A stretch of 33,894 bases of DNA from an uncultured Clostridium sp. (GCA_964564255.1 CAZMAZ010000003.1:1-33894); one strand, 5' to 3'; shown: positions 4,424-27,203, counted from the stretch's first letter. Numbers and translations: made by a program. Notes: generated by a model not told the origin, from the sequence alone.

Positions 4424-5599
4424 CTATCCGATACGGTCACTGCCGTCATCGGGAATCACTTCCTTAACCGCGGCGATTGCACATTCAATCATGGAATCGT
4501 CCGGTTCATAGACAGTCAGACGTTGCAACCACAGTCCGGGCGTTGAGATAATACGCGTCAACAAATTGTCATGCCGACCCGCAAACTTAATCAATTCATA
4601 GCCGATACCGACTGTAAGCGGAATCAACAGAAGTTTAATGCACCAACGCAACGCCAGCGGCATAGCAACATCAGAGCCACTGATCAAATAATAAAGCGGG
4701 TCTATCAAAAACGAAATAAAAATACCGACAAGCGCCATCAGAACAAGAAAAGATGTGCCGCAACGTGGGTGAAACCGTCTTTGCAGTCGCACATTTTCAA
4801 CCGTAAGCGGAAGACCGTGTTCATAGCAAAAAATGGTTTTATGCTCTGCACCATGATACTGAAAAGTGCGGCGAATGTCTTTCATCAGCGAAACCGCAGC
4901 CATATATCCGACGAGAAGCAAAATTCTTGCCACGCCTTCGATCAGGGATTTATAAAGTGAAGTCAGTGCCACATGTCCTTCCGGTTGCAATGCGGGAATA
5001 AGATGCGCAAGTCCGCTGTAAATCAATGTGGGAACAATGATGAACAAACCGACCGCAAGTCCTACACCGAGAATCACACCGAGCGCCATGACAAGAAAAG
5101 AAAGGAAAGAATCCCCGCTTTTTTGTTCTGCAGAAGCCTGTTTGCAAGGTTCTTCCGACTGTGCCTGTGTTTCCGAGTGCTCCGGCTGTTCACTTGCTTC
5201 GGGCGCTTCTTGAATTTCCGTTTCGGTGATTTCGACGGAAGCATTCTTTCCGGCAGCTTTTTTTGCTTCCTTTTGACGTTTTTTCTCTTCCTTTTCGCGT
5301 GCCAATTCGGCTTCTGCCTCATCCAAGCCCGACAACTGGGCAGAGCGCATTAAATACTTGTATCCGCTCTTCATGGAATCCGCAAAATTAAATATCCCCC
5401 GAACAAACGGAATCCTTGCGACTTTTTTGTGCTTGGAAAATGTGGTTGGTTCTTTCTCAATCACAATTTCTCCGTCCGGATTGCGTACTGCCATCGCGGT
5501 CATTTGCGGACCGCGCATCATAATACCTTCGATCAACGCCTGACCCCCTATGGAAGTCTTGATTGCAGTTTGATTATATGTCTCTTTTCGTCTGCTCAT
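4424..5599 (-). CDS. DUF1385 (YqhQ-like) membrane protein
   Basis: The N-terminus IGGQALIEGIMMRGP...MAVRNPDGEI and the motifs YHGAEHKTI...RFHPRCGTSF are DUF1385 hallmarks. The ribosome-binding site is GAAGGAG. The protein contains an extra block of about 75 aa rich in E, K and A. Confidence 0.8.
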   Translation of the reverse strand: MSRRKETYNQTAIKTSIGGQALIEGIMMRGPQMTAMAVRNPDGEIVIEKEPTTFSKHKKVARIPFVRGIFNFADSMKSGYKYLMRSAQLSGLDEAEAELAREKEEKKRQKEAKKAAGKNASVEITETEIQEAPEASEQPEHSETQAQSEEPCKQASAEQKSGDSFLSFLVMALGVILGVGLAVGLFIIVPTLIYSGLAHLIPALQPEGHVALTSLYKSLIEGVARILLLVGYMAAVSLMKDIRRTFQYHGAEHKTIFCYEHGLPLTVENVRLQRRFHPRCGTSFLVLMALVGIFISFLIDPLYYLISGSDVAMPLALRWCIKLLLIPLTVGIGYELIKFAGRHDNLLTRIISTPGLWLQRLTVYEPDDSMIECAIAAVKEVIPDDGSDRIG

Positions 5600-7746: not shown

Positions 7747-9609
7747 TTATCTGTCTGCTTTATCCTTTTTATCATTTTTACTTTGAAAATAGGCAACAAC
7801 AGCGGCAGCATCTCGTTTACTGATTCCGCGAATTTCCGCTATACGGATCTCCTCTGCTTCCGCCAGGGCGGACATACTGCCAAAGGCGGACAGCAAAATC
7901 TTGGCTTTTGTCGGGCCGATACCGGGAATGGCGGTCAATGCGGAAGAACGCAGTGTTTTTCGTTTCGCCGCTTGCATTCGCTGTAAAGTAAAGCGATGGA
8001 CCTCTTCCTGCAATTTGTACAAAAACACATAAACCGCATTTTCGCGTGCGATGTTTATTTCTTCCCTGTCCGTACACAAAGCGCGCGTCTTATGGTAGGC
8101 ATCCTTCACCATTCCGAAAACAGGAATGTCCTCTCCCTGCTCTTTCAGTACCTGTCGTATTACCGCAACATGATTCATCCCGCCATCCAGCAAAATCAAA
8201 TCGGGACGATGCGAAAAAGAACCGTCTTGATCCTGAAAATGTGCTATTCTGCGAGAAATGGCTTCTTTCATACTGGCGTAGTCATCCGTGCCCTCAACCG
8301 ATGCAATTCGAAAATATCTGTAATCACTTTTGCAAAATTTACCGTTTTCACAAACAATCATGCCTGCCGTTAGATGTTCATCTCCGTAATTGGAAATATC
8401 GTACACTTCAATCCGAACAGGATAGGTATCCAGTAAAAGGAGCTCACACAATCGCGTCAATACACCGTCATCCCGTTCCGCTTCTTTTCGTGCGGATCGA
8501 ACCGCTTCTTCCGCATTTGCTCGCACTGTTTCGCAAAGAGAGCGACTACCGCCTCGCGCAGGTGTTCTTACCTGCACACGGTGTGTTGCGCGCTGTGAAA
8601 GATAATCCGCAAGCAATTCGCGGTCCTCTTCTTCCGGATCGAAAGATAAAAGAACGGTACGCGGTACATCATCACGCCTGCTGTAATATTCGTACAAAAA
8701 GGAAATAACAGCACTTTCGTCCGCAATGGCATCCCGCCCAAACGAAAAACGGTCGGTGTCCGCAACAATCCCCGAACGAATGGAAAAAATCGAAATACAT
8801 GCGCCGAAATCGTCGGTATAAAATCCGATAGCATCTTCTTCGGTATCGGGCGATTCCACTACATGCTGCTTGGAACGCAAACGATCCAATGCCGCAATAG
8901 CATCTCGACACCGTGCCGCCGTTTCGTACCGCTCCTCTTCGGCGGCACGCAACATTTCTTGGTTTAATGCATTTTTAGCTCCGCTGATATTGCCACGCAA
9001 AATGTCCGCCGCGGTATGAATCAACTCTGCATACTCTTGCGCAGAAATCTGTCCCGTACAAACCCCGCAACACTGCTTCATCTGATAGTAAATACAGGGG
9101 CGGGTAGTTCCTATATCACGAGGAAATTGTCGCTTGCAACTCGGTAGCCCCAGCGTCCGCCTAAGCATGCCGATCACAGCATAAACAGTAGATACTCCGG
9201 AATAGGGTCCAAAATACTTCCCTTTGTCATTTTTCCGCTGTCTGGTCATCACAAGTGTTGGATAAGGTCCATCTGTAATTTTGATATAAGGGTAAGACTT
9301 TGCATCCTTAAGACGAATATTGTATTTGGGAGAATATCGTTTGATCAATGTGTTTTCAAGCGTCAGGGCTTCAATTTCGGTTGAACAGATATAATAATCA
9401 AAATCCACAACAGATGCAACCATTCGTTCGGTTTTGATGTTTTTTTCTCCTGCGCGAAAATACTGTGAAACGCGATTTTTTAATTTACGCGACTTTCCTA
9501 CATAAATAACCGTCCCATCTCTTCCGCGCATTACATAAACGCCCGGACAAAGCGGCAAAGTATTTGCTTTTTCCAAAAGCTTTTCTAACTCCTGCGCACG
9601 AATTGCCAT
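7747..9609 (-). CDS. uvrC: Excinuclease ABC subunit C
   Basis: The GIY-YIG N-terminus (PGVYVMRGRDGTVIYVGKSRKLKNRV), the UVR domain, the endonuclease V-like domain and a C-terminal (HhH)2 (LTAIPGIGPTKAKILL) are all visible. I set the start at the ATG at 9607-9609, preceded by GGAAGGAGGAAAG. Confidence 0.95.
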   Translation of the reverse strand: MAIRAQELEKLLEKANTLPLCPGVYVMRGRDGTVIYVGKSRKLKNRVSQYFRAGEKNIKTERMVASVVDFDYYICSTEIEALTLENTLIKRYSPKYNIRLKDAKSYPYIKITDGPYPTLVMTRQRKNDKGKYFGPYSGVSTVYAVIGMLRRTLGLPSCKRQFPRDIGTTRPCIYYQMKQCCGVCTGQISAQEYAELIHTAADILRGNISGAKNALNQEMLRAAEEERYETAARCRDAIAALDRLRSKQHVVESPDTEEDAIGFYTDDFGACISIFSIRSGIVADTDRFSFGRDAIADESAVISFLYEYYSRRDDVPRTVLLSFDPEEEDRELLADYLSQRATHRVQVRTPARGGSRSLCETVRANAEEAVRSARKEAERDDGVLTRLCELLLLDTYPVRIEVYDISNYGDEHLTAGMIVCENGKFCKSDYRYFRIASVEGTDDYASMKEAISRRIAHFQDQDGSFSHRPDLILLDGGMNHVAVIRQVLKEQGEDIPVFGMVKDAYHKTRALCTDREEINIARENAVYVFLYKLQEEVHRFTLQRMQAAKRKTLRSSALTAIPGIGPTKAKILLSAFGSMSALAEAEEIRIAEIRGISKRDAAAVVAYFQSKNDKKDKADR

Positions 9610-9684
9610 ATGCTTTCCTCCTTCCCGATCAATAAACTTTGATCGGTTCCTTTTCCCGGTTGTTTGCTCTTTTGACACATACAG

Positions 9685-9737
9685 CAAAAAGGCGGCACGC
9701 GATGCATCGCAAATGATGCTGTCCGCCATGCCGCCGT
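9685..9737 (-). terminator. Rho-independent terminator after ptsH
   Basis: On the minus strand the stem GGCGGCA...TGCCGCC (plus-strand 9691-9697 / 9729-9735) encloses an inner GCGATGCATCGC palindrome. It is followed by TTTTTG. Confidence 0.55.
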
Positions 9738-9749
9738 CTCGGTGCAATC

Positions 9750-10013
9750 TTATTCCGCAAAACCGGAGTTGACCAATGCCTCCAAACCGTCGATCGCGGC
9801 ATTCTCGTCTTGCCCGTCTGCAATCAAACGAACAGTCATGCCCTTTGCGATTCCTAACGACAAGACTCCAAGAAGGCTCTTCGCATTGACCTTTCTGTCA
9901 TCCTTTTCAATCCAAATGGAACACTTGTAGCAATTCGCCTTTTGAATGAAAAATGTTGCCGGCCTTGCATGTAATCCGCGCGTATTGGTAATAACGATGT
10001 CACGGGTTTTCAT
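9750..10013 (-). CDS. ptsH: HPr family phosphocarrier protein
   Basis: 87 aa: MKTRDIVITNTRGLHARPAT... carries His15, and ...NAKSLLGVLSLG carries Ser46. The ribosome-binding site is GAGGAGAG. The 79-codon upstream extension in the ORF track is not HPr-like. Confidence 0.9.
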   Translation of the reverse strand: MKTRDIVITNTRGLHARPATFFIQKANCYKCSIWIEKDDRKVNAKSLLGVLSLGIAKGMTVRLIADGQDENAAIDGLEALVNSGFAE

Positions 10014-10506
10014 ATAACTCTCCTCTATTCCTCTGTTCGGCTTTACAGGTGCTTTCCCTGCTTTCGTACATACTGTAAATAGTATATCAAAAGGAGGTGG
10101 CAAAATCAAGAGTATTTTTGGAGATTTTACATGGAAATGATTTTTCGAATTTGTGTGTATTGCACAAAAGAAGCTACAGCAAATCCACATTATAACCGAA
10201 ACCTCGTATTTTTTCGCGTTTAAAGTAATATTTTTTACATTTGTTACCAAGTGTCATTCAAAACTCCGCGGTTTGCAAGATTGAGAACCACTCTTCTCTA
10301 TGATCCCTCCTTCCCTCAAAAATTCCTTTCCGCACTGTTTTTTTGCGATTCCTTTCAACGGATTTGCAAAGCAATTGTGGGGTATATCCCTATGCCATAT
10401 ATCATTATATCATCTATAAACCAATATTGCAATAGTAATACCATCCAAAAACAAACATTTTTTCGTCTCTTATGGGTTAAAATATAATAAAGGACGGTGA
10501 TTCATA

Positions 10507-14470: not shown

Positions 14471-14926
14471 ATGTATCACGACCGTTTTTTTCGTATTTTG
14501 CTATGTGTGCTTTGCTCTTTCACTTTGATTCTTATTTTCTGCGTATCCCACGGTATTCGCACTATGGAAGAGGAAAATGCATTGACACGTAAAACGGCAT
14601 ACAGTGCCGCTCTCTCAATCCAGCGAGAGTTAAAAGCCGCGTGTACAACAAATTCCACATCGGAAACAATCGAAAATGCCCAAAATTCCGAAAATATTCC
14701 GACAGAAGAGGATGCCGAAAACAATCCTTCAACAAACACCTCGTTTTGGATTTTGCGCGAGCAGGACGGAATTCTCTGCGTATTTGATCAATTCGGAACA
14801 CTTACACGGAATGTCGGCACCTCTACCGCCCTTCTGCCGCCGGCAGACCGCGAAGCATTACGAAACGGGATTCGGGTTGAAAGCGAACAGGAGCTGGCTG
14901 AAAAAATCGGAGATTTAACGACCTAA
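14471..14926 (+). CDS. Hypothetical N-terminally membrane-anchored protein
   Basis: 151 aa. A GAGAGGAAA ribosome-binding site lies 5 nt before the ATG. There is one N-terminal hydrophobic helix. I recognised no family. Confidence 0.55.
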   Translation: MYHDRFFRILLCVLCSFTLILIFCVSHGIRTMEEENALTRKTAYSAALSIQRELKAACTTNSTSETIENAQNSENIPTEEDAENNPSTNTSFWILREQDGILCVFDQFGTLTRNVGTSTALLPPADREALRNGIRVESEQELAEKIGDLTT

Positions 14927-15010
14927 TTTTAAAAGGACACCTCTCATAATACAATGCTCGTCCGACATGCGGAAAATTTTTAGAGGTGCCCCCAAAAAAG
15001 AAAAAAAACA

Positions 15011-15050
15011 CCGAACAAATCCGCTCTTAAGTCAAAACGGATTTGTTCGG
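15011..15050. terminator. Bidirectional rho-independent terminator (ends the helicase operon and the convergent plus-strand gene)
   Basis: A 13-bp perfect stem pairs CCGAACAAATCCG with CGGATTTGTTCGG. It is flanked by A8 on the 5' side and CATTTTAT on the 3' side. Confidence 0.7.
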
Positions 15051-15097
15051 CATTTTATATGACAGACTTTGGATCCTCTGCAGCAATTGGTTATATG

Positions 15098-17335
15098 TCA
15101 AAAATCGTTTTGCATCTCCAAAACCCGTTTTTCCGCCTCATCTGCGCGCAATCGATCTTCCGCATATGCGTGGCGAAGCAGCTCCGCGGGAATCAGACGG
15201 TCATACTTTTCAAAAACAGGTGTTTCGGCGGCACCGACCAACGTATACGGATCAATTCCGTCGATCTGCACTTTTTGCACCAATGCCTGTATCAGAGAAG
15301 ACGCGTCCCCTCTTTCCATACGAAAAGTCATATAGTAACATCCTTCAAATTCCAATTGACTGATGCGAAAGGAACGCGCATTTGCCAAAAGAAATTTGCG
15401 TAATGTGCGGAAAGAACGCGTTCCAAGCCACGGAAACAGGCAATATGTATATCCACCCAGCCCGACAAGATGCTTTTTGTGCAAGCCGGCATTGCGAAAT
15501 ACATGTCTTGCCGCTTCCAATCGCTTTTGTGCATTCGGTTTGAGATACGGATAAACAATATCTTCTTCCAAAACACGGCGCATCCGTTCCAGGATTTTGG
15601 TGTGAATTTCACCGAAATCTCCCGGCCATGATATTTCCATCTTCCCTTCGACCCTGTGAACATAAACCAACCTTCGCGACAGATCCAATTCCTCCACTTC
15701 CCAAACGCGCCCCGCCAAGGCAAAGCGATCTCCGATCGGAGGTGGCGTTGTAATGGTTCCAATCTGATCCGAACCGCAATTAACGGTAAAATCCTCGCTT
15801 TCCTTGAAAACCGCGTAGAATTTAAAACTTTTGAGAAGCCGTTCTCCCGCAAGTCCAATCAGCACCCCTTTTTCTTCGGTCATCTCCAGGTACTCGTTTT
15901 CAAGCATTGACAGAAGCAATGTTCGATACTCTTCTCGCGGAACATCGACAAAAGGAGGCATAGAAAGAACCGTTTCCGCCAAACGACGCGGCGTCATTTC
16001 CCCCGCAGCGGCAAGTACACTGAGTGTTTGTTGAAACAAAAGACTGTAGGGCCGTTTTTTTCGAACGGGCGGTTCGATAAACCGTTCTTCTATATACAGC
16101 TGAATAATGGCAATTCCCCGTAAAAGCTCCCACGGAATCCGCTGTGGCAACGGCGTATTCGGCAACGGATCTTCCTCGCGAAAAACCATCATCATTTCCG
16201 GCACCTGTCCACGTCTGCCGGAACGTCCGAGCCGTTGCAAAAAACTGCTGACCGAATTGGGCGCTTCCGCCTGCAAAACACGTTCAAGCCTTCCAATGTC
16301 GATACCGAGCTCCATGGTTACGGTGGCGCAAGTCACCGCAAAAACATCCTCGTCCTTCATTTTCAATTCTGCCTCTTCACGTAAAGCGGCAGACAGGTTG
16401 CCATGATGAATCAGAAAGACATCGGGATCACCGCGCATTTTGGCAATCTGTCGAAAGGTGGCGCAAAGATATTCGGTTTCTTCTCTGGAATTGGAAAAAA
16501 CCAAGGATTTTCGATCGCGCACACAGTCATACATATACTCATATCCGGCATCCAGTGTCGCGACTGCAGACTGATTGCTTTTTTCCTGTTTTTCCGGCTC
16601 CTCCGTCTGCTGTGCTTTGGGATTTTGTATGTAAAAATGCTCCATTCCCAAACGCCAATGAATTCGTTCCTGAGAAAGAGTCGGACAATCGGTCAAATTC
16701 CCTGTTCCGGCGCTTAACCAATCGGCGGCAATTTGCGGGTCCCCAACCGTTGCGGAAAGACCGATGCGGCGCGGATGATAACCAATCGCCCGTGCTATTC
16801 GGAAAAGTTGACACATAATTTGGTTGCCGCGATCGGTGCCCGTCAGCGTGTGAATCTCGTCAATCACGACAAAGCGCAAAGAACCGAACAACCGTATCAA
16901 ATCATTTGAGCGATTGATCAGCATGGATTCAAGCGATTCGGGCGTAATTTGCAAAACGCCGCGCGGTTGCTCCAACAGCTTCTTTTTATGCGACATGGTT
17001 ACATCTCCGTGCCAATGTGTCACCGGAATACCGCTTTGTACAAGCAATTCTTCAATTCGAGCAAATTGGTCGTTAATCAAAGATTTCAAAGGTGCGATAT
17101 AGAGAACACCGACCGTTTGCGGCATTTGCTCGCAAAGAAGAGAAAGAATCGGAAAAAAAGCCGCTTCGGTCTTTCCGCTCGCCGTCGATGAGTGTAAAAG
17201 CAAATGATGATCGGTTTCAAAAATCGTCTTTGCCGCAAACAATTGAACTTCACGCAAAGAATCCCACTCATGTGCATAAATGTATTCACGAACAAAGGGC
17301 GGGAATCGCAAGAAAATGCGATCAGCTTCTGTCAT
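15098..17335 (-). CDS. Lhr-like DEAD/DEAH-box SF2 helicase (helicase component of the Shango-type system)
   Basis: Walker A is SSTASGKT (GKT at 17168-17176) and motif II is DEIH (16850-16861). Motif III GLSATV and motif VI QRLGRSGRRG are also present. About 355 aa of C-terminal non-core region follow. A GAGGAA ribosome-binding site lies 7 nt upstream of the ATG, and the start overlaps the upstream gene by 14 nt. Confidence 0.9.
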   Translation of the reverse strand: MTEADRIFLRFPPFVREYIYAHEWDSLREVQLFAAKTIFETDHHLLLHSSTASGKTEAAFFPILSLLCEQMPQTVGVLYIAPLKSLINDQFARIEELLVQSGIPVTHWHGDVTMSHKKKLLEQPRGVLQITPESLESMLINRSNDLIRLFGSLRFVVIDEIHTLTGTDRGNQIMCQLFRIARAIGYHPRRIGLSATVGDPQIAADWLSAGTGNLTDCPTLSQERIHWRLGMEHFYIQNPKAQQTEEPEKQEKSNQSAVATLDAGYEYMYDCVRDRKSLVFSNSREETEYLCATFRQIAKMRGDPDVFLIHHGNLSAALREEAELKMKDEDVFAVTCATVTMELGIDIGRLERVLQAEAPNSVSSFLQRLGRSGRRGQVPEMMMVFREEDPLPNTPLPQRIPWELLRGIAIIQLYIEERFIEPPVRKKRPYSLLFQQTLSVLAAAGEMTPRRLAETVLSMPPFVDVPREEYRTLLLSMLENEYLEMTEEKGVLIGLAGERLLKSFKFYAVFKESEDFTVNCGSDQIGTITTPPPIGDRFALAGRVWEVEELDLSRRLVYVHRVEGKMEISWPGDFGEIHTKILERMRRVLEEDIVYPYLKPNAQKRLEAARHVFRNAGLHKKHLVGLGGYTYCLFPWLGTRSFRTLRKFLLANARSFRISQLEFEGCYYMTFRMERGDASSLIQALVQKVQIDGIDPYTLVGAAETPVFEKYDRLIPAELLRHAYAEDRLRADEAEKRVLEMQNDF

Positions 17336-18026
17336 GCGCAGATTCCTCTGTCAAATAACGATAAACTTCCCCATTTGTCATACATACCACACGATCTTTG
17401 GCGGCGGCAACCGATGCAAAAAACGCTTCTGCACGATCCCATGAGGCATACTTGTCCATTTCAAACGAATGCGTCCACGTATAAAACAGCCGAACACCGT
17501 CCTCGGCGTCGCCGGTTTGGTCCGATTCGGTTAAAAACTGCTCCCAAAGTGCCTCCAGGGCAGGATCTTCCATTTTACATGTGGGGTTCCATAAAAGAAA
17601 CTCATCGGGAGAACCAAACCGATGCGTTGACTCGGTCGAACGTGCCCACAAAATCCCACAATCTCTTGTAAGCGCCACTACACGGCTGTCAACGGCAATA
17701 TGTCCGTAGGGATACGCCATACCTGTAATTGCCTGTCCGGAAAGCGCTTCCAGTCGCACTTTATCCTCGGCAATTTCATACCGTATCCGATCGTCATCGC
17801 AGGTCGTCAGATGCGGGTGCGTCACCGTGTGAACGGCAACTTCATGTCCCGCATACAGCGAACGAATTTCGTCTGCTCGAACATGAGTTCCCTCTTTACC
17901 GGGTTGAACCAAAGAACCGGAATTCAGGTTAAAGGTTCCGCACAGTCCGTATTGATTCAAAAGTGCCACCAAGCGACGGTCTTGGAAGGATCCGTCGTCA
18001 AAGCTAAAGGTAATAATGCGTTTCAT
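17322..18026 (-). CDS. Polysaccharide deacetylase family protein (CE4 / NodB homology domain)
   Basis: Motif 1 is SFDDG (17991-18005) and motif 2 is HTVTH (17817-17831). AYPYG and THS resemble motifs 3 and 5. The protein has no signal peptide. The ribosome-binding site is AAAGGAGAA. Confidence 0.85.
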   Translation of the reverse strand: MKRIITFSFDDGSFQDRRLVALLNQYGLCGTFNLNSGSLVQPGKEGTHVRADEIRSLYAGHEVAVHTVTHPHLTTCDDDRIRYEIAEDKVRLEALSGQAITGMAYPYGHIAVDSRVVALTRDCGILWARSTESTHRFGSPDEFLLWNPTCKMEDPALEALWEQFLTESDQTGDAEDGVRLFYTWTHSFEMDKYASWDRAEAFFASVAAAKDRVVCMTNGEVYRYLTEESAHDRS

Positions 18027-18050
18027 TTTTTGTTCTCCTTTATTGTTTGT

Positions 18051-19481
18051 TCAAAATTGAATATCTTCCGGTGTATATACCTTTTGCGTTCGATCCCCTT
18101 TTGCGCTTGCGGCTTCCGAATCCGCAAAATGATTTGCGCTTTTGTCGTCCTTTTCACTGTCAGACGAACTTGCATGCGGGACGGCGTCGCGCACAACTTC
18201 CGAAAAGACAGCATTCGGATTTTGCATTAAAATATTGAGAACCGTCATATAATCTCTCAACATCTCTCGCGGCGTAATCATACTGTCGGCACCTGCGCGG
18301 GACAGGCAAAGTCGTAAAAATGAAATTTGGTCGTCCGTGCCGATATGTGTGGACGGATCCCATGTATAATACTGCGCATAAAGCATGGTTATGCGCTGAA
18401 TCAAGGCAAGCAATTCATCGTCCGAAAGCCGTCGCAAACGGATGACGGGGCCTATCAAATTTTTAAAGCCGTCCAACGCAAAACGACTGTCACATAAACG
18501 GGAACGCAATGCCTCGTAGCTGAATAATCCCCGCCTTGTGTCTTCCAAAAACTGCGGTGTGCCCGCAAAGAGAATTCCCAGCCCTTGCGCACGCCCTTGC
18601 AAGGTATCATTGAACATCGACAAAATTTTTTCATAATTATTTTCCCGACTGACACGATGACTGATCTTATAGAGATTAACACACTCATCAATAAAAACAA
18701 TCAAGCCGCGATACCCCATACGGCGCGCCAATGCTGCCCAGAGTTTAAGAAAATCATACCAATTATCATCATCGATAATGGTAGAAACAGATATTCCGAT
18801 TTCTCTGCGGGCTTCGGTTTTGGTTGTATATTCGCCGCGGAACCAACGCAAGCATGCACTCATACGCGCGTCCGCTTCTGCGTCCCCTTGCCGATATGCG
18901 CGATAATAGGTAATCATCACCTGCGCAAAATCAAACCCGCCAACCAAAAATTCCATTTCGCGCATTTCCTCGGTCACAAGCCGATTCATTTCGGCGTCAA
19001 ACACGGCACTGTCGGGTGAAAATCCCGCGGAAAGCAATTGGCTTTGCAAAGACGTAATCCATTTGGCAATGATTTTTCGCAATGCACCGCCGTCCGGAGA
19101 GGCTTTGGAAGCCAGATTTTTCATAAGTTCACGGTAGGTCGCCACACCGTTGCCACCGGTTCCGTACAGGCGGCGTTCCGGCGACAGATCACAGTCCGCT
19201 GTCAAAAAATCGCGTTCCAATGCGTATCCGCGAATCAACTGAAGCAAAAAACTCTTCCCGCTTCCGTATCGCCCAATCAAAAAACGCATAGCGCCCCCGC
19301 CCTCATTTACCTGCTCAAGGTCGGAAAGCAATGCACTGATTTCATCTTGCCGTCCGATTGCAATATAGGGCGCGCCTTCCCGCGGTACAACGCCTGCGCT
19401 GACAGAAGCAAGCAAGGAAGCAAGTACCCGACGCGGCACCTGTTTGTATGACGCATTTTGTTGTTTTTCTACATTACTCAT
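18051..19481 (-). CDS. DUF2791 / BrxD-like P-loop ATPase (ATPase component of the Shango-type system)
   Basis: The sequence ...SAGVVPREGAPYIAIGRQDEISALLSDLEQV..GGGAMRFLIGRYGSGKSFLL... is DUF2791-like, with GSGKS at 19251-19265. Also present are DLSPERRLYG...TYRELMKNL and Walker B LIVFIDEC. The start overlaps the upstream stop as ATGA. Confidence 0.8.
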   Translation of the reverse strand: MSNVEKQQNASYKQVPRRVLASLLASVSAGVVPREGAPYIAIGRQDEISALLSDLEQVNEGGGAMRFLIGRYGSGKSFLLQLIRGYALERDFLTADCDLSPERRLYGTGGNGVATYRELMKNLASKASPDGGALRKIIAKWITSLQSQLLSAGFSPDSAVFDAEMNRLVTEEMREMEFLVGGFDFAQVMITYYRAYRQGDAEADARMSACLRWFRGEYTTKTEARREIGISVSTIIDDDNWYDFLKLWAALARRMGYRGLIVFIDECVNLYKISHRVSRENNYEKILSMFNDTLQGRAQGLGILFAGTPQFLEDTRRGLFSYEALRSRLCDSRFALDGFKNLIGPVIRLRRLSDDELLALIQRITMLYAQYYTWDPSTHIGTDDQISFLRLCLSRAGADSMITPREMLRDYMTVLNILMQNPNAVFSEVVRDAVPHASSSDSEKDDKSANHFADSEAASAKGDRTQKVYTPEDIQF

Positions 19482-21274
19482 TTCTCGTCCCCCAATTCCG
19501 TTTTCAATATTTCAATATAATCCGTAATCACCGCATATCCATTCTCTGTTTCTTCCAAAAGAATGTCTCCTATCTGCGGTAAAGAAAGTGCGACATCGTT
19601 AATCTCATCTGCAATCGCATCCTCCATAAAGCCTTGTTGTCGCGCCCACACGCTTGCCTCCTTTTGTCGTCCTTCCAAAAGCAGGTGCAGATACGGCTCC
19701 CACTTTGCAAGCAACGAAGGTTCGGTTTGCTCTGTTTCCTCGGAGCTGTCTGCAACCGCGATCGGTAGGGATTTGGTATCGGATACCGCGATCTGCGGTA
19801 AAAAATCAGGCAATTCTTCTTGCTTTTCGACTGTTTCCGATTGGTCAAATGCGCTTATCAGCTGTCTTGTCGTATCCCATGAATTTTCCTCAATCTGCAC
19901 TGCGTGTTCAACAGAAAGCGCGCGCATTGGCAAATCATACAGTTTTTCGTACGCCGGCGCTTCGGGTTCGCGCTCTTTTACTCGGCTTTTTTCGGGCAAT
20001 GCCTTTTGTAAATAGGCATCTGCCATCTCCTGCATAAAATTCGGCAAATTTCCAATGGAAAGCCGCGCCTTAATCCCGAGCGATATTCGAATTTTGTTCT
20101 CGGTATATTTGATTAAATCCGTTATCAAAAAACGTAATTCGTGAGACCGTGAAAAGGAATACGCATCAATCTCCAAATGTTTTTTGTGCTTCGCAGCACA
20201 GAGAACCCCCACGAAGGTATCGCGCTTATAGGTAATATCTTTTAGTCCTTTGATGGAAAAATGTCCGGTGGCATCGGTCATTTCCCGTATGCATGCGTGC
20301 AAAACGCCCTTAATAACCGTATCAAAAAGCGGTGCCGTATCGCTTGTGTAAAACTTGCTTTTCTTGTAGTTATAATTTGTGCAAAAGAAAAGTAGGGTTT
20401 GCACAAAACTGCCGTCGGGAGAATCTGTATCGGCACAATTCAAATAATATTCTCGCAAAGAAGAACCGGCAATCAATTCCCTGTTTTGTTCCTCCAAAAG
20501 AATCTTCGGAGCGGAAAGCCCGTGCATTAGCCCGAAATCGCAAATCCATTCCCGCATGTAATGAGAGATAAAAGGATGGTCGCGATAATAAGCAAGCCAA
20601 AGTGCGCAAAGTTGTTTTTGCGTCTCGCACGGCGGGATGCGATCGGAAAAATGAATCAATTCAAAAACATACAGCTGAATATAACTACTGTCGGTTTTCG
20701 GATACTGTTGCTTTCTGACACAGTCACGCCAAAACAAGTACCATGCAAGCTGTTTGGCATTCATTTGTGCATATTGAGGAACATAGGAGAAAAACGGTTC
20801 CGGTTCGCAAGGAGAACCGTGCGCTGTTAAAAGCCGTTCGCCGTTTTCACAAAATTGGTCAAAATAAGTGTATTTTGTCGGCCACGGATAAACACGAACC
20901 GTGTGAACCATGCTGCCATTCATTTCCCAAACACGCTCGGGAGGCTGCTTGCGTTTTTCTTCGTTCGCCGTATGTGGCGGAATATACCGAACAAACGCGG
21001 TTTTTTGAGATGCCTGCTCATCTGTTTCTTCTTTTCTTTGCTTTTCGGGAAAAGAGTTTTGTGTAATCGTTTCAAATGAAATTCGACCGCTTTCTGTTGC
21101 AGTGTTTGGATTTTTCTCGGCATCGCCATTCAAAACGGGATCCGCCATAATGTCAATCGCTTCTGTATCCTCTCGGCATACGGTCGTCTTTTTATTACGA
21201 GGCAGAAGGGCGTCAATGGTCCAAAAGGCATCCAGTTCTTCCTCTCTTTTTCTTTGATCGTCTTTCACACGCAT
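19478..21274 (-). CDS. TerB-N / TerB-C domain protein (SngA-like component of the Shango-type system)
   Basis: The TerB-N signature FFSYVPQYAQMNAKQLAWYLFWRDCVRKQQYPKTDSSYIQLYVFELIH falls around 20726-20794. The C-terminus is TerB-C-like (...QGFMEDAIADEINDVALSLPQIGDILLEETENGYAVITDYIEIL). I set the start at the ATG at 21272-21274, because the consensus promoter lies inside the longer ORF-track extension. Confidence 0.8.
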   Translation of the reverse strand: MRVKDDQRKREEELDAFWTIDALLPRNKKTTVCREDTEAIDIMADPVLNGDAEKNPNTATESGRISFETITQNSFPEKQRKEETDEQASQKTAFVRYIPPHTANEEKRKQPPERVWEMNGSMVHTVRVYPWPTKYTYFDQFCENGERLLTAHGSPCEPEPFFSYVPQYAQMNAKQLAWYLFWRDCVRKQQYPKTDSSYIQLYVFELIHFSDRIPPCETQKQLCALWLAYYRDHPFISHYMREWICDFGLMHGLSAPKILLEEQNRELIAGSSLREYYLNCADTDSPDGSFVQTLLFFCTNYNYKKSKFYTSDTAPLFDTVIKGVLHACIREMTDATGHFSIKGLKDITYKRDTFVGVLCAAKHKKHLEIDAYSFSRSHELRFLITDLIKYTENKIRISLGIKARLSIGNLPNFMQEMADAYLQKALPEKSRVKEREPEAPAYEKLYDLPMRALSVEHAVQIEENSWDTTRQLISAFDQSETVEKQEELPDFLPQIAVSDTKSLPIAVADSSEETEQTEPSLLAKWEPYLHLLLEGRQKEASVWARQQGFMEDAIADEINDVALSLPQIGDILLEETENGYAVITDYIEILKTELGDEK

Positions 21275-21307
21275 CCCCCTTTCCCCACAGCGTTTCTTTA
21301 TTATTTC

Positions 21308-21336
21308 ATTATAACACAATCTACGGTTAGTGTCAA
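21308..21336 (-). promoter_or_regulatory. Sigma-A consensus promoter of the TerB/ATPase/CE4/helicase operon
   Basis: The minus strand reads TTGACA ctaaccgtagattgtgt TATAAT. Both hexamers are perfect, the spacer is 17 nt, and there is an extended -10 TG. The -10 element is about 35 nt upstream of the ATG at 21274. Confidence 0.6.
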
Positions 21337-21573
21337 TTGCCTTTTTATTCGTTTTTCGGTTTTTCCCTTCATTTTTTCCTTGTCGACACCGTTTGCACCG
21401 CATATTAAAACCCCGCCCAACGCAAAACGCGTTCGAACGGGGTAATTTTATCATTCTATGAACCCACCGCATCTTTTCAATGCCTTGTCAAGCGTTTTTT
21501 GCGACAAAAAATACGAATCGGATTTGCACTTTTGCTTTTTTTGCATTTTTCGATTGTTTTCTCATTTTTTCTA

Positions 21574-21602
21574 TTGACTTCCGTCGGATAGTATGCTATA
21601 AT
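21574..21602 (+). promoter_or_regulatory. Sigma-A-type promoter of the aconitase-icd operon
   Basis: The sequence is TTGACT tccgtcggatagtatgc TATAAT with a 17-nt spacer, about 64 nt upstream of the ATG at 21666. Confidence 0.6.
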
Positions 21603-26234: not shown

Positions 26235-27203
26235 TTATTTTTCTTCCCGCGTTATCTCTCCGGAAAACAAACAGTCATCCAAATAACAACGTATGGAATT
26301 TTCCAGCCAATAAGCAAAGACCGTCCCGGGACAACGACTTTCATAGGCTTTCATTTTCAAATACAGAGGCTTCCCGTCCCCGACATCGTGCCAAATATCG
26401 GTGAAAACAAATCGATACCTCCCTGCCGTCATTTCATGCTCCGCGAAAGCAAAAGCGTCCCGACAAACAAGTGTAATCTTATCCCGATGCGGAAATTGCG
26501 GCAAAATATGGGTTGCAAACAAATCAATAACCTCGGGACTTCGCTCCACCACGGTTACCGATGTAACTTCCTCCTTTTGTGAAGCAAGATATGCAAAATA
26601 ACCAAGCCCCAAGCCATAGGTCAAAACCCGTCCGTTTGCCAATTTTACCGCTTCGGCAGTGGTTACCATTTCATTGGGCATCAGCGTCATCCACTCTGTC
26701 CCGTTCTCCAGCACAGCGGGAAAAGCAAAGGGCTGTGTAAAAAAACCGATCTGCGGAATCATGCGTCTGTCATCGGTTACCAAAAAATCATCGCAAACAA
26801 ATGCTTCCCCGGGTTGCAGAGTTCGATGCGTTAATTCCCAATTTCCCATTTTCAAATGCGGAATTCGAATTTGGCTGTAGTACGGGTCATTTTGATAACG
26901 GTCAATCGGTTGCTCGCAAATCATGGGCAAAAAATAATTTTGAAAAAAAGCACGGTCCTGCCCCACCGATTCCAGCCCGCAAAGAAGAGCCAGACACTCT
27001 GCGTAGGCGCGCGAAAGACTACTGCCTGTTGATTCTGCAATCTCTCGCACAGATGCAAGATCAATCGCGTCCGGTGCAACATTTAAGAAAAAGCTGACCA
27101 ATCGCAAAATCTCACTGTTATATGACGGAATTGTTTGCGGTAACAACCGTTTCCGCGCACGATATTCCATGGCGGCTCGCGCATCAAAGTCCATCATTTG
27201 CAT
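26235..27203 (-). CDS. Uncharacterised protein with a class I SAM-methyltransferase / spermidine-synthase-like fold
   Basis: VLTYGLGLGYFAYLA...VTVVERSPEVIDL...FVFTDIWHD resembles the GxGxG nucleotide-binding motif plus the acidic motifs of the fold. A GGAGGAG ribosome-binding site lies 7 nt before the ATG at 27201-27203. The gene overlaps the tadA stop by 10 nt. Confidence 0.55.
   Translation of the reverse strand: MQMMDFDARAAMEYRARKRLLPQTIPSYNSEILRLVSFFLNVAPDAIDLASVREIAESTGSSLSRAYAECLALLCGLESVGQDRAFFQNYFLPMICEQPIDRYQNDPYYSQIRIPHLKMGNWELTHRTLQPGEAFVCDDFLVTDDRRMIPQIGFFTQPFAFPAVLENGTEWMTLMPNEMVTTAEAVKLANGRVLTYGLGLGYFAYLASQKEEVTSVTVVERSPEVIDLFATHILPQFPHRDKITLVCRDAFAFAEHEMTAGRYRFVFTDIWHDVGDGKPLYLKMKAYESRCPGTVFAYWLENSIRCYLDDCLFSGEITREEK

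Follow-up and report, generated by a model that had tools for sequence, protein, structure and literature searches.

A Shango-family operon of a gut Clostridia bacterium with a long-retained CE4 gene in a variable sngB-sngC slot

We analysed a 33,894-nt stretch of DNA from an uncultured gut Clostridia bacterium (GCA_964564255.1 CAZMAZ010000003.1:1-33894; "the window" throughout) whose minus strand carries an operon of the known Shango family with one departure from it, a CE4 (NodB-fold) gene lodged in a slot between the core genes sngB and sngC. Judged by sequence comparison, this is a rare and long-inherited variant and not a new kind of system, and we favour, at a probability of roughly 60%, the reading that the CE4 enzyme is inherited carbohydrate-enzyme cargo within the operon, selected for its own activity. 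Shango itself (SngA/SngB/SngC) is described as a three-gene system and has experimental validation from E. coli (Millman et al. 2022, bioRxiv 10.1101/2022.05.11.491447) as well as P. aeruginosa PA14 (Johnson et al. 2023, PMC10250203); a September 2025 preprint still calls it unclear by what means SngA and other TerB-domain defence proteins protect.

The operon and its four genes

Three of the four co-oriented open reading frames (ORFs) encode proteins whose best PADLOC matches are the Shango models, in line with the Shango identity that an earlier note on this DNA had proposed. The first gene (sngA, 598 aa, 19478..21274) combines TerB_N (3.2e-16) and TerB_C (1.6e-8) domains in Pfam and matches SngA at 3.9e-45 over model positions 45-525 of 528. 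The second (sngB, 476 aa, 18051..19481) encodes a BrxC_BrxD (DUF2791) ATPase (7e-154) that is matched best by SngB (7.5e-161, 534 bits; BrxD 2e-48, 164 bits), its Walker A (GRYGSGKS) and Walker B (LIVFIDEC) motifs being readable in the translation. The fourth (sngC, 745 aa, 15098..17335) encodes an Lhr-like SF2 DEAD/DEAH helicase (DEAD 1e-25, Helicase_C 4e-15, WH_Lhr sub-threshold) with SngC as its top model (2.2e-237, 788 bits; BrxHI 2.3e-123, 411 bits). Every motif quoted in the earlier note (for the helicase GKT, DEIH, SAT and QRLGRSGRRG) was located in the translations, and its domain calls were upheld by Pfam, the Lhr winged-helix model falling below threshold. The A-B-C gene order of Shango is thus kept, all on one strand, and by homology and architecture we classify the locus as a Shango-family operon; sngB is not directly followed by sngC, and because the 705-bp CE4 gene between them departs from the three-gene composition, the locus is classed as a Shango variant. 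Hydropathy analysis revealed no transmembrane segment or signal peptide in any of the four operon proteins. GC content is unremarkable across the locus. By analogy with the validated systems, an anti-phage role would be expected of this operon.

Expression signals bound the four genes on both sides. Upstream lies a sigma-70-type promoter (21308..21336, minus strand; TTGACA-17-TATAAT with an extended -10 TG), the sole 12/12 match to consensus in the 7.5 kb scanned, and between it and the sngA ATG stands the ribosome-binding site GGGGAAAGGGGG. The sngA frame is open up to 21472; given the position of the promoter (21336-21308), the promoter-proximal ATG at 21274 was taken as the usable start, and SngA of a sister species described below aligns with the window protein from this Met. 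The 66 additional open codons (21275-21472) have a counterpart in the sister species, where an upstream extension is also open; this extension is probably not coding, since similarity between the two species begins only at the promoter-proximal Met. The sngA/sngB junction is an ATGA overlap (19478-19481), whereas sngB and the CE4 gene (17322..18026) are separated by a 24-nt spacer (18027..18050) that reads TGA-acaaacaatAAAGGAGAAcaaaaa-ATG and includes the ribosome-binding site AAAGGAGAA, and the sngC start overlaps the CE4 stop by 14 nt (17322-17335). Downstream lies a strong intrinsic terminator (15007..15054, minus strand) with a 13-bp perfect stem core (arms CCGAACAAATCCG/CGGATTTGTTCGG) followed by a T-run. 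Within the operon no strong internal promoter was detected, the internal matches being weak (9/12), nor any strong internal terminator (13 terminator-like elements vs a shuffled expectation of 10.3). The four ORFs, three junctions, promoter and terminator are all present as the earlier note had described them, and together they suggest a single transcription unit running from promoter to terminator. A second promoter on the plus strand (21574-21602; TTGACT-17-TATAAT with TG, 11/12) points at the aconitase gene and is divergent from the Shango promoter, with a 390-bp AT-rich intergenic region between.

The third gene encodes a 234-aa protein with a Polysacc_deac_1 domain (1.9e-18, Pfam) and no match to any PADLOC defence model. 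All residues conserved without exception among 56 family members, including D10, D11, H66, H70, R129, W184 and H186, are present in it, so that the TFDDG Asp-Asp (D10/D11), the H-x3-H motif (H66/H70) and the C-terminal catalytic His (H186) are intact. Its AlphaFold2 model is confident (pLDDT 93.3, pTM 0.90), and among the Foldseek matches listed almost all are CE4 structures (probability 1.00, TM 0.55-0.7, identity 15-20%), comprising acetylxylan esterases, peptidoglycan and chitin deacetylases and ArnD. A sequence search of the PDB with the CE4 protein likewise returned remote CE4 matches only (best E = 2e-4). Given identities of 15-20% to solved structures, we read the protein as a divergent CE4 (NodB-fold) enzyme, a predicted esterase/deacetylase, and its kept residues and confident fold predict that it is functional. 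The catalytic motif begins as early as residue 6, hydropathy over 19 residues peaks at 0.96 and no signal peptide is apparent, so that the enzyme is read as cytoplasmic. Its family, uncharacterised and made up of proteins of ~230 residues, is frequent in Clostridia and Paenibacillus and large, with >2,000 matches at E <= 1e-5 in these taxa, mostly ~230 or ~280 residues long.

Two further observations concern this protein. At window positions 17880-17920 (CE4 residues ~38-47), ~8 residues of a His-rich loop (consensus FGxxHxIxHxGI) are missing; the loop is present in all 55 other aligned family members, and AlphaFold2 confidence is lower at the deletion. The exceptions to CE4 structures among the Foldseek matches listed were a glucanotransferase (1k1x) and a viral turret protein (8qpg_TA). 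The latter, the turret protein of Haloferax tailed virus 1, is one of the highest-scoring structures (query TM-score 0.71), so that a CE4-like fold is present in a virion structure.

Retention of the CE4 gene and turnover of the slot

The closest lineage, a sister species recovered from human-gut metagenomes (L086-L089, L091, L092 and L003; loci are cited by such numbers), has the identical four genes in the identical order, with an ATGA overlap at its CE4/sngC junction. Its long contigs retain the flanks of the window, IDH and aconitase on one side and PBP1A with a 151-aa ORF (orf151) on the other. Full protein alignments between the window and the sister species gave identities of 81% for SngB, 80% for SngC, 76% for aconitase, 63% for CE4 and 54% for SngA. 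Non-synonymous divergence (pN) was 0.25 for CE4, 0.13 for SngB and SngC and 0.31 for SngA, and synonymous divergence (pS) was saturated at 0.71-0.82 (CE4 0.74), for which reason pN is compared with pS and no dN/dS is reported. Since the same four genes stand between the same flanks and pN is far below a saturated pS, these alignments indicate that the CE4 gene has been retained under purifying selection at its present position since before the split of the two species. The gene is thus real, intact and co-oriented, as the earlier note had it, and conserved in the closest relatives. A metagenome scan with the CE4 sequence returned only sister-species contigs.

SngA diverges fast at this locus family. 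Its identity to the window protein is 27-40% over the 80 surveyed loci introduced below, in addition to the 54% in the sister species, as against 68-81% for SngB and SngC, a pattern that would suit a phage-contacting or sensor component.

To place the CE4 gene among relatives, we compared 80 species-representative loci with SngB relatives of 68-78% identity, all from metagenome-assembled genomes (MAGs) of gut or rumen Clostridia. Both sngB and sngC were present in 70 of the 80, and in 59 of these 70 the two genes are adjacent, none with a CE4 gene between them. The remaining 11 carry other genes in the slot: a GH39-like protein of 437-442 aa (L006, L012, L029), a Gmx_para_CXXCG protein, in some cases with small ORFs (L009, L011, L013, L039), small ORFs plus a membrane protein but no CXXCG protein (L014, L022), a PHP-domain protein (phosphoesterase; L044:9373-10245) or the permease EutH (L055:4240-5334). 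In two more loci cargo lies just downstream of sngB on contigs that end before sngC (EutH in L016, 9136-10248; a CXXCG protein in L008). The sngA-sngB junction showed no insertion of 0.5 kb or more in the surveyed loci. Furthermore, in three of three distant plasmid Shango loci, all in A-B-C order (a Paenibacillus megaplasmid, Klebsiella pKPN3 and a Sulfitobacter plasmid), sngB and sngC overlap or lie 5 nt apart.

The distribution of cargo follows the SngB tree in part. All cargo loci except those with PHP and EutH are confined to one part of it, and the two large remaining clades have short B-C gaps only, again excepting the PHP and EutH loci. Within the cargo-bearing part, SngB of locus L106 is 84-86% identical to that of loci whose slots differ in content: CXXCG cargo (L009, L011, L013), nothing (L007), a CE4 gene right after sngB on a contig that ends just past it (L094), or CmpB-GH39-CE4 (L093). 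Because closely related SngB proteins accompany such different slots, slot content changes much faster than the core genes, and on these comparisons the sngB-sngC junction is best described as a cargo slot, which appears to pick up and exchange unrelated genes in one Clostridia Shango sub-lineage. The earlier note's wording, an operon expanded to four genes, suggests a new obligatory component, and this was not borne out; the slot is variable and holds unrelated genes according to lineage.

Several loci have additional features in or near the slot. In one SngB clade (L009:9612-10983, L011:1752-2828 and L014:9449-10422; also L013, L039 and L022) the slot proteins comprise a Gmx_para_CXXCG-like protein of ~207 aa, further proteins of 93 and 118 aa and a membrane protein of 197 aa, with no Pfam match except a weak one to CXXCG; these genes look like small immunity-protein or toxin-cassette-type cargo. 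A CE4 protein of another subfamily, 283-302 aa long and sharing 37-39% identity with the window CE4, is encoded upstream of sngA on the same strand in L007:4280-5131 and L009:4924-5832, coming after a valyl-tRNA synthetase gene, with an unannotated gene before the CE4 (L009) or after it (L007). On the Sulfitobacter faviae plasmid (L101:6015-9721), sngC is followed directly, on the same strand, by genes for a PD-(D/E)XK nuclease and a UvrD-type helicase, possibly a second kind of accessory arrangement that lies after the system and not within it.

The slot-embedded CE4 proteins belong to one clade, every inspected member of which is Shango-embedded. Beyond the window and its sister species, these are L090 (SngB C-terminus, then CE4), L094-L096 (SngB, then CE4), L097 (GH39-CE4-SngC), L093 (SngA-SngB-CmpB-GH39-CE4, then a 770-aa metallophosphoesterase) and L106 (MAG GCA_045640785.1), which has a complete, tightly spaced SngA-SngB-GH39-CE4-SngC operon. 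In L093 the protein before GH39 is an ABC_trans_CmpB membrane protein (4723-5475), the metallophosphoesterase is calcineurin-like (7814-10126), and no sngC is seen before the contig ends. A profile search for embedded CE4 proteins found only seven clusters (54 member sequences), among 5.8 billion, above a score gap (370-437 bits vs <= 342) that is partly circular, as the profile was built from six of the seven clusters. In a neighbour-joining tree the seven clusters group together with a bootstrap of 61/100, compared with 99 for the window pair (P0001, P0002) and 100 for the L106-type group.

The partner enzyme has a similar distribution. GH39-like proteins of L093, L106 and the GH39-only loci are 60-63% identical, which fits shared ancestry, and they keep the clan GH-A "WNEP" motif, as read from their sequences. 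No GH39-like gene was found in the window by tblastn with the L106 protein, and the sngB-CE4 spacer leaves only 24 nt. The window CE4 looks like a reduced form of the GH39-CE4 pair seen in L106 and L097.

Origin and role of the embedded enzyme

We propose that a GH39-CE4 pair, at times with further genes, would have inserted between sngB and sngC in an ancestral operon of the Clostridia and would then have been differentially reduced, leaving CE4 only (the window and its sister species), GH39 only, other cargo or nothing. The CE4 gene would be expressed with the defence genes from the operon's consensus promoter, partly through translational coupling, and would be kept by purifying selection for a job of its own on an acetylated sugar substrate, with the core Shango activity (TerB-domain sensing, ATPase and helicase) independent of it. 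Some observations weigh against this proposal. In at least two deep lineages the CE4 gene has stayed within the operon with its translation coupled to that of sngC, and a dispensable passenger would be expected to drop out more often. The 61/100 bootstrap would allow two independent recruitments from one enzyme family which, if real, would point to a functional link. Five stand-alone CE4 relatives (~40-47% identical, outside the embedded clade) are single genes in unrelated non-defence contexts, and none of the five contexts inspected has a GH39 neighbour, leaving a pre-existing metabolic GH39-CE4 cassette undocumented. Furthermore, the independence of CE4 from defence is our inference, and the anti-phage role of the operon is predicted from its homology to the systems validated in E. 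coli and P. aeruginosa.

The strongest alternative, which we regard as possible though doubtful, is that CE4, together with the GH39-like enzyme where present, is a true accessory part of a Clostridia-specific Shango subtype and handles a glycan or an acetylated molecule during sensing or the effector step; its substrate might come from the cell wall (a precursor or a turnover product) or be a phage component that carries sugar or acetyl groups. This alternative gains from a CE4 gene held in frame within the operon across saturated synonymous divergence, from its coupling to sngC in two lineages (the 14-nt overlap of the window and an ATGA in L086) and from the slot's repeated occupation, in at least eight lineages, by two carbohydrate-active enzymes. 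The embedded CE4 proteins, moreover, form a clade of their own whose single acquisition is only moderately supported, and like SngA they change more quickly than SngB and SngC; published speculation also ties Shango TerB proteins to membrane surveillance. It loses ground because the slot is empty in 59 of 70 close relatives and in the canonical plasmid loci, because it also hosts unrelated cargo (EutH, PHP, CXXCG-type) and turns over among loci with 84-86% identical SngB, and because some lineages have CE4 alone or GH39 alone, which shows that no fixed CE4-GH39 pair is required. In addition, CE4 lacks a PADLOC defence match, and literature searches gave no link between CE4 and Shango. A more specific version, in which the gut-Clostridia Shango clade recruited cytoplasmic CE4 and/or GH39 enzymes as working accessory subunits, with a glycan or an acetylated molecule being processed in an activation or effector step, seems to us slightly less probable still.

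A further alternative takes the SngABC-like cluster as a vertically inherited, membrane-associated DNA-processing or stress module that is not primarily anti-phage, with the embedded enzymes representing operon growth; we consider this unlikely. It draws on the chromosomal surroundings, as the window is otherwise housekeeping in content (ThrRS, NagB-like, CoaD, RsmD, UvrC, HPr, PBP1A, aconitase, IDH, a TadA-like deaminase and a sulfatase-family protein). The genes flanking the operon are those for PBP1A (Transgly and Transpeptidase domains), aconitase and Iso_dh, so that Pfam upholds the core-gene neighbourhood noted earlier. No tRNA, integrase or further defence gene was found in the window, and the sister species keeps the position. 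SngB and SngC are also unusually conserved (68-81% identity in at least 80 species), and a scan of viral contigs with SngB returned nothing. Against this stand the strong homology of all three proteins to validated anti-phage systems, the occurrence of relatives on conjugative plasmids and the 27-54% identity of SngA, a fast divergence expected of a phage-interacting component. Core-genome defence hotspots, moreover, are already documented in the literature. When the ten neighbouring proteins of the window were compared with the other 80 loci, no PBP1A, aconitase or IDH context was shared, a further point against this alternative, which implies that the chromosomal site is conserved only in the sister species.

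Finally, that the CE4 gene is a recent chance insertion or a decaying, functionless pseudogene, as its absence from most relatives and the loop deletion unique to the window protein might suggest, is very improbable and was rejected on the sister-species synteny, a pN far below pS, the intact frame with all invariant residues, the confident fold and the presence of CE4 in seven clusters from different samples. The earlier note had held that a CE4 gene absent from the operon in close relatives and carried elsewhere would speak for such an insertion; the closest relatives keep it in the operon, and with retention reaching back before the species split that objection fails.

Which reading holds affects what the variant can teach. 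If CE4 and GH39 act in defence, they would indicate a glycan-linked signal or target and offer a first mechanistic handle on what Shango senses, a system for whose TerB protein membrane surveillance has so far been a conjecture. Should they be mere cargo, as we favour, the sngB-sngC junction would be a gene-capture hotspot inside a defence operon, and defence operons could carry and constitutively express unrelated enzymes. The practical effect is modest in either case: annotation tools will go on labelling the locus Shango, and with seven protein clusters the variant is rare.

Neighbouring genes and comparison with known systems

Two neighbouring genes are worth recording. On the plus strand, orf151 (14471-14926), which runs towards the Shango terminator, encodes a protein that has a hydrophobic N-terminus, matches no family and is kept at the same place in the sister species with 50% identity. 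On the minus strand, a 322-aa protein (26235-27203) has no Pfam or NCBIfam match and a weak PADLOC match to mad2 (1.2e-5). Homologues with 39-43% identity (L035:2712-3563, L044:946-1842, L059:1315-2145 and L066:793-1671) sit at most a few kb upstream of sngA in four other Shango loci, directly adjacent to and divergent from it in L066; the proximity of this protein to Shango could be chance or a loose association.

Type 2 BREX shares with the window a homologous ATPase (BrxD) and a homologous Lhr-like helicase (BrxHI), and it was considered and rejected. The BrxD and BrxHI scores lie far under those of the Sng models, and gene 2 reaches 162 bits against the NCBIfam BREX_BrxD model, whose cut-off is 350. 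The window, unlike type 2 BREX, has a TerB protein and is without PglX/PglZ: Pfam and PADLOC searches of the neighbouring ORFs found no PglX, PglZ or other BREX gene in the window, in keeping with the earlier note, and the genes around the operon are housekeeping genes only.

Among enzymes of its own fold, the window protein shares with known CE4/NodB enzymes the fold and the Asp-Asp and His-His metal/catalytic motifs, and it differs from secreted deacetylases of the PgdA/PdaA/IcaB type in having no signal peptide or membrane anchor. The five-gene L106 operon shares the slot, the CE4 clade and the operon orientation, but the window lacks GH39 and its CE4 is 48% identical to that of L106; the GH39-only relatives share the slot and the operon orientation.

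An embedded gene of this kind has a parallel in the anticodon nuclease PrrC, which sits inside the EcoprrI type Ic restriction-modification locus and acts as a defence effector in its own right, under the control of the system that houses it. Both cases have a foreign gene between defence subunit genes, co-expressed with them (in the window, by our reading of its operon signals), and they differ in that the embedded gene of the window encodes an enzyme of a carbohydrate esterase family that is not known to act in defence. Literature searches on CE4 or GH39 genes in Shango, on the Shango mechanism and on CE4 in defence systems found nothing relevant among the papers that could be searched. Compared with Shango as described, the window likewise encodes a TerB-domain protein, a DUF2791/BrxC_BrxD ATPase and a DEAD/DEAH helicase, with the gene order unchanged and all three on a single strand; it departs in the CE4 gene between sngB and sngC, in its Firmicute host and in standing alone among housekeeping genes, not in a defence island.

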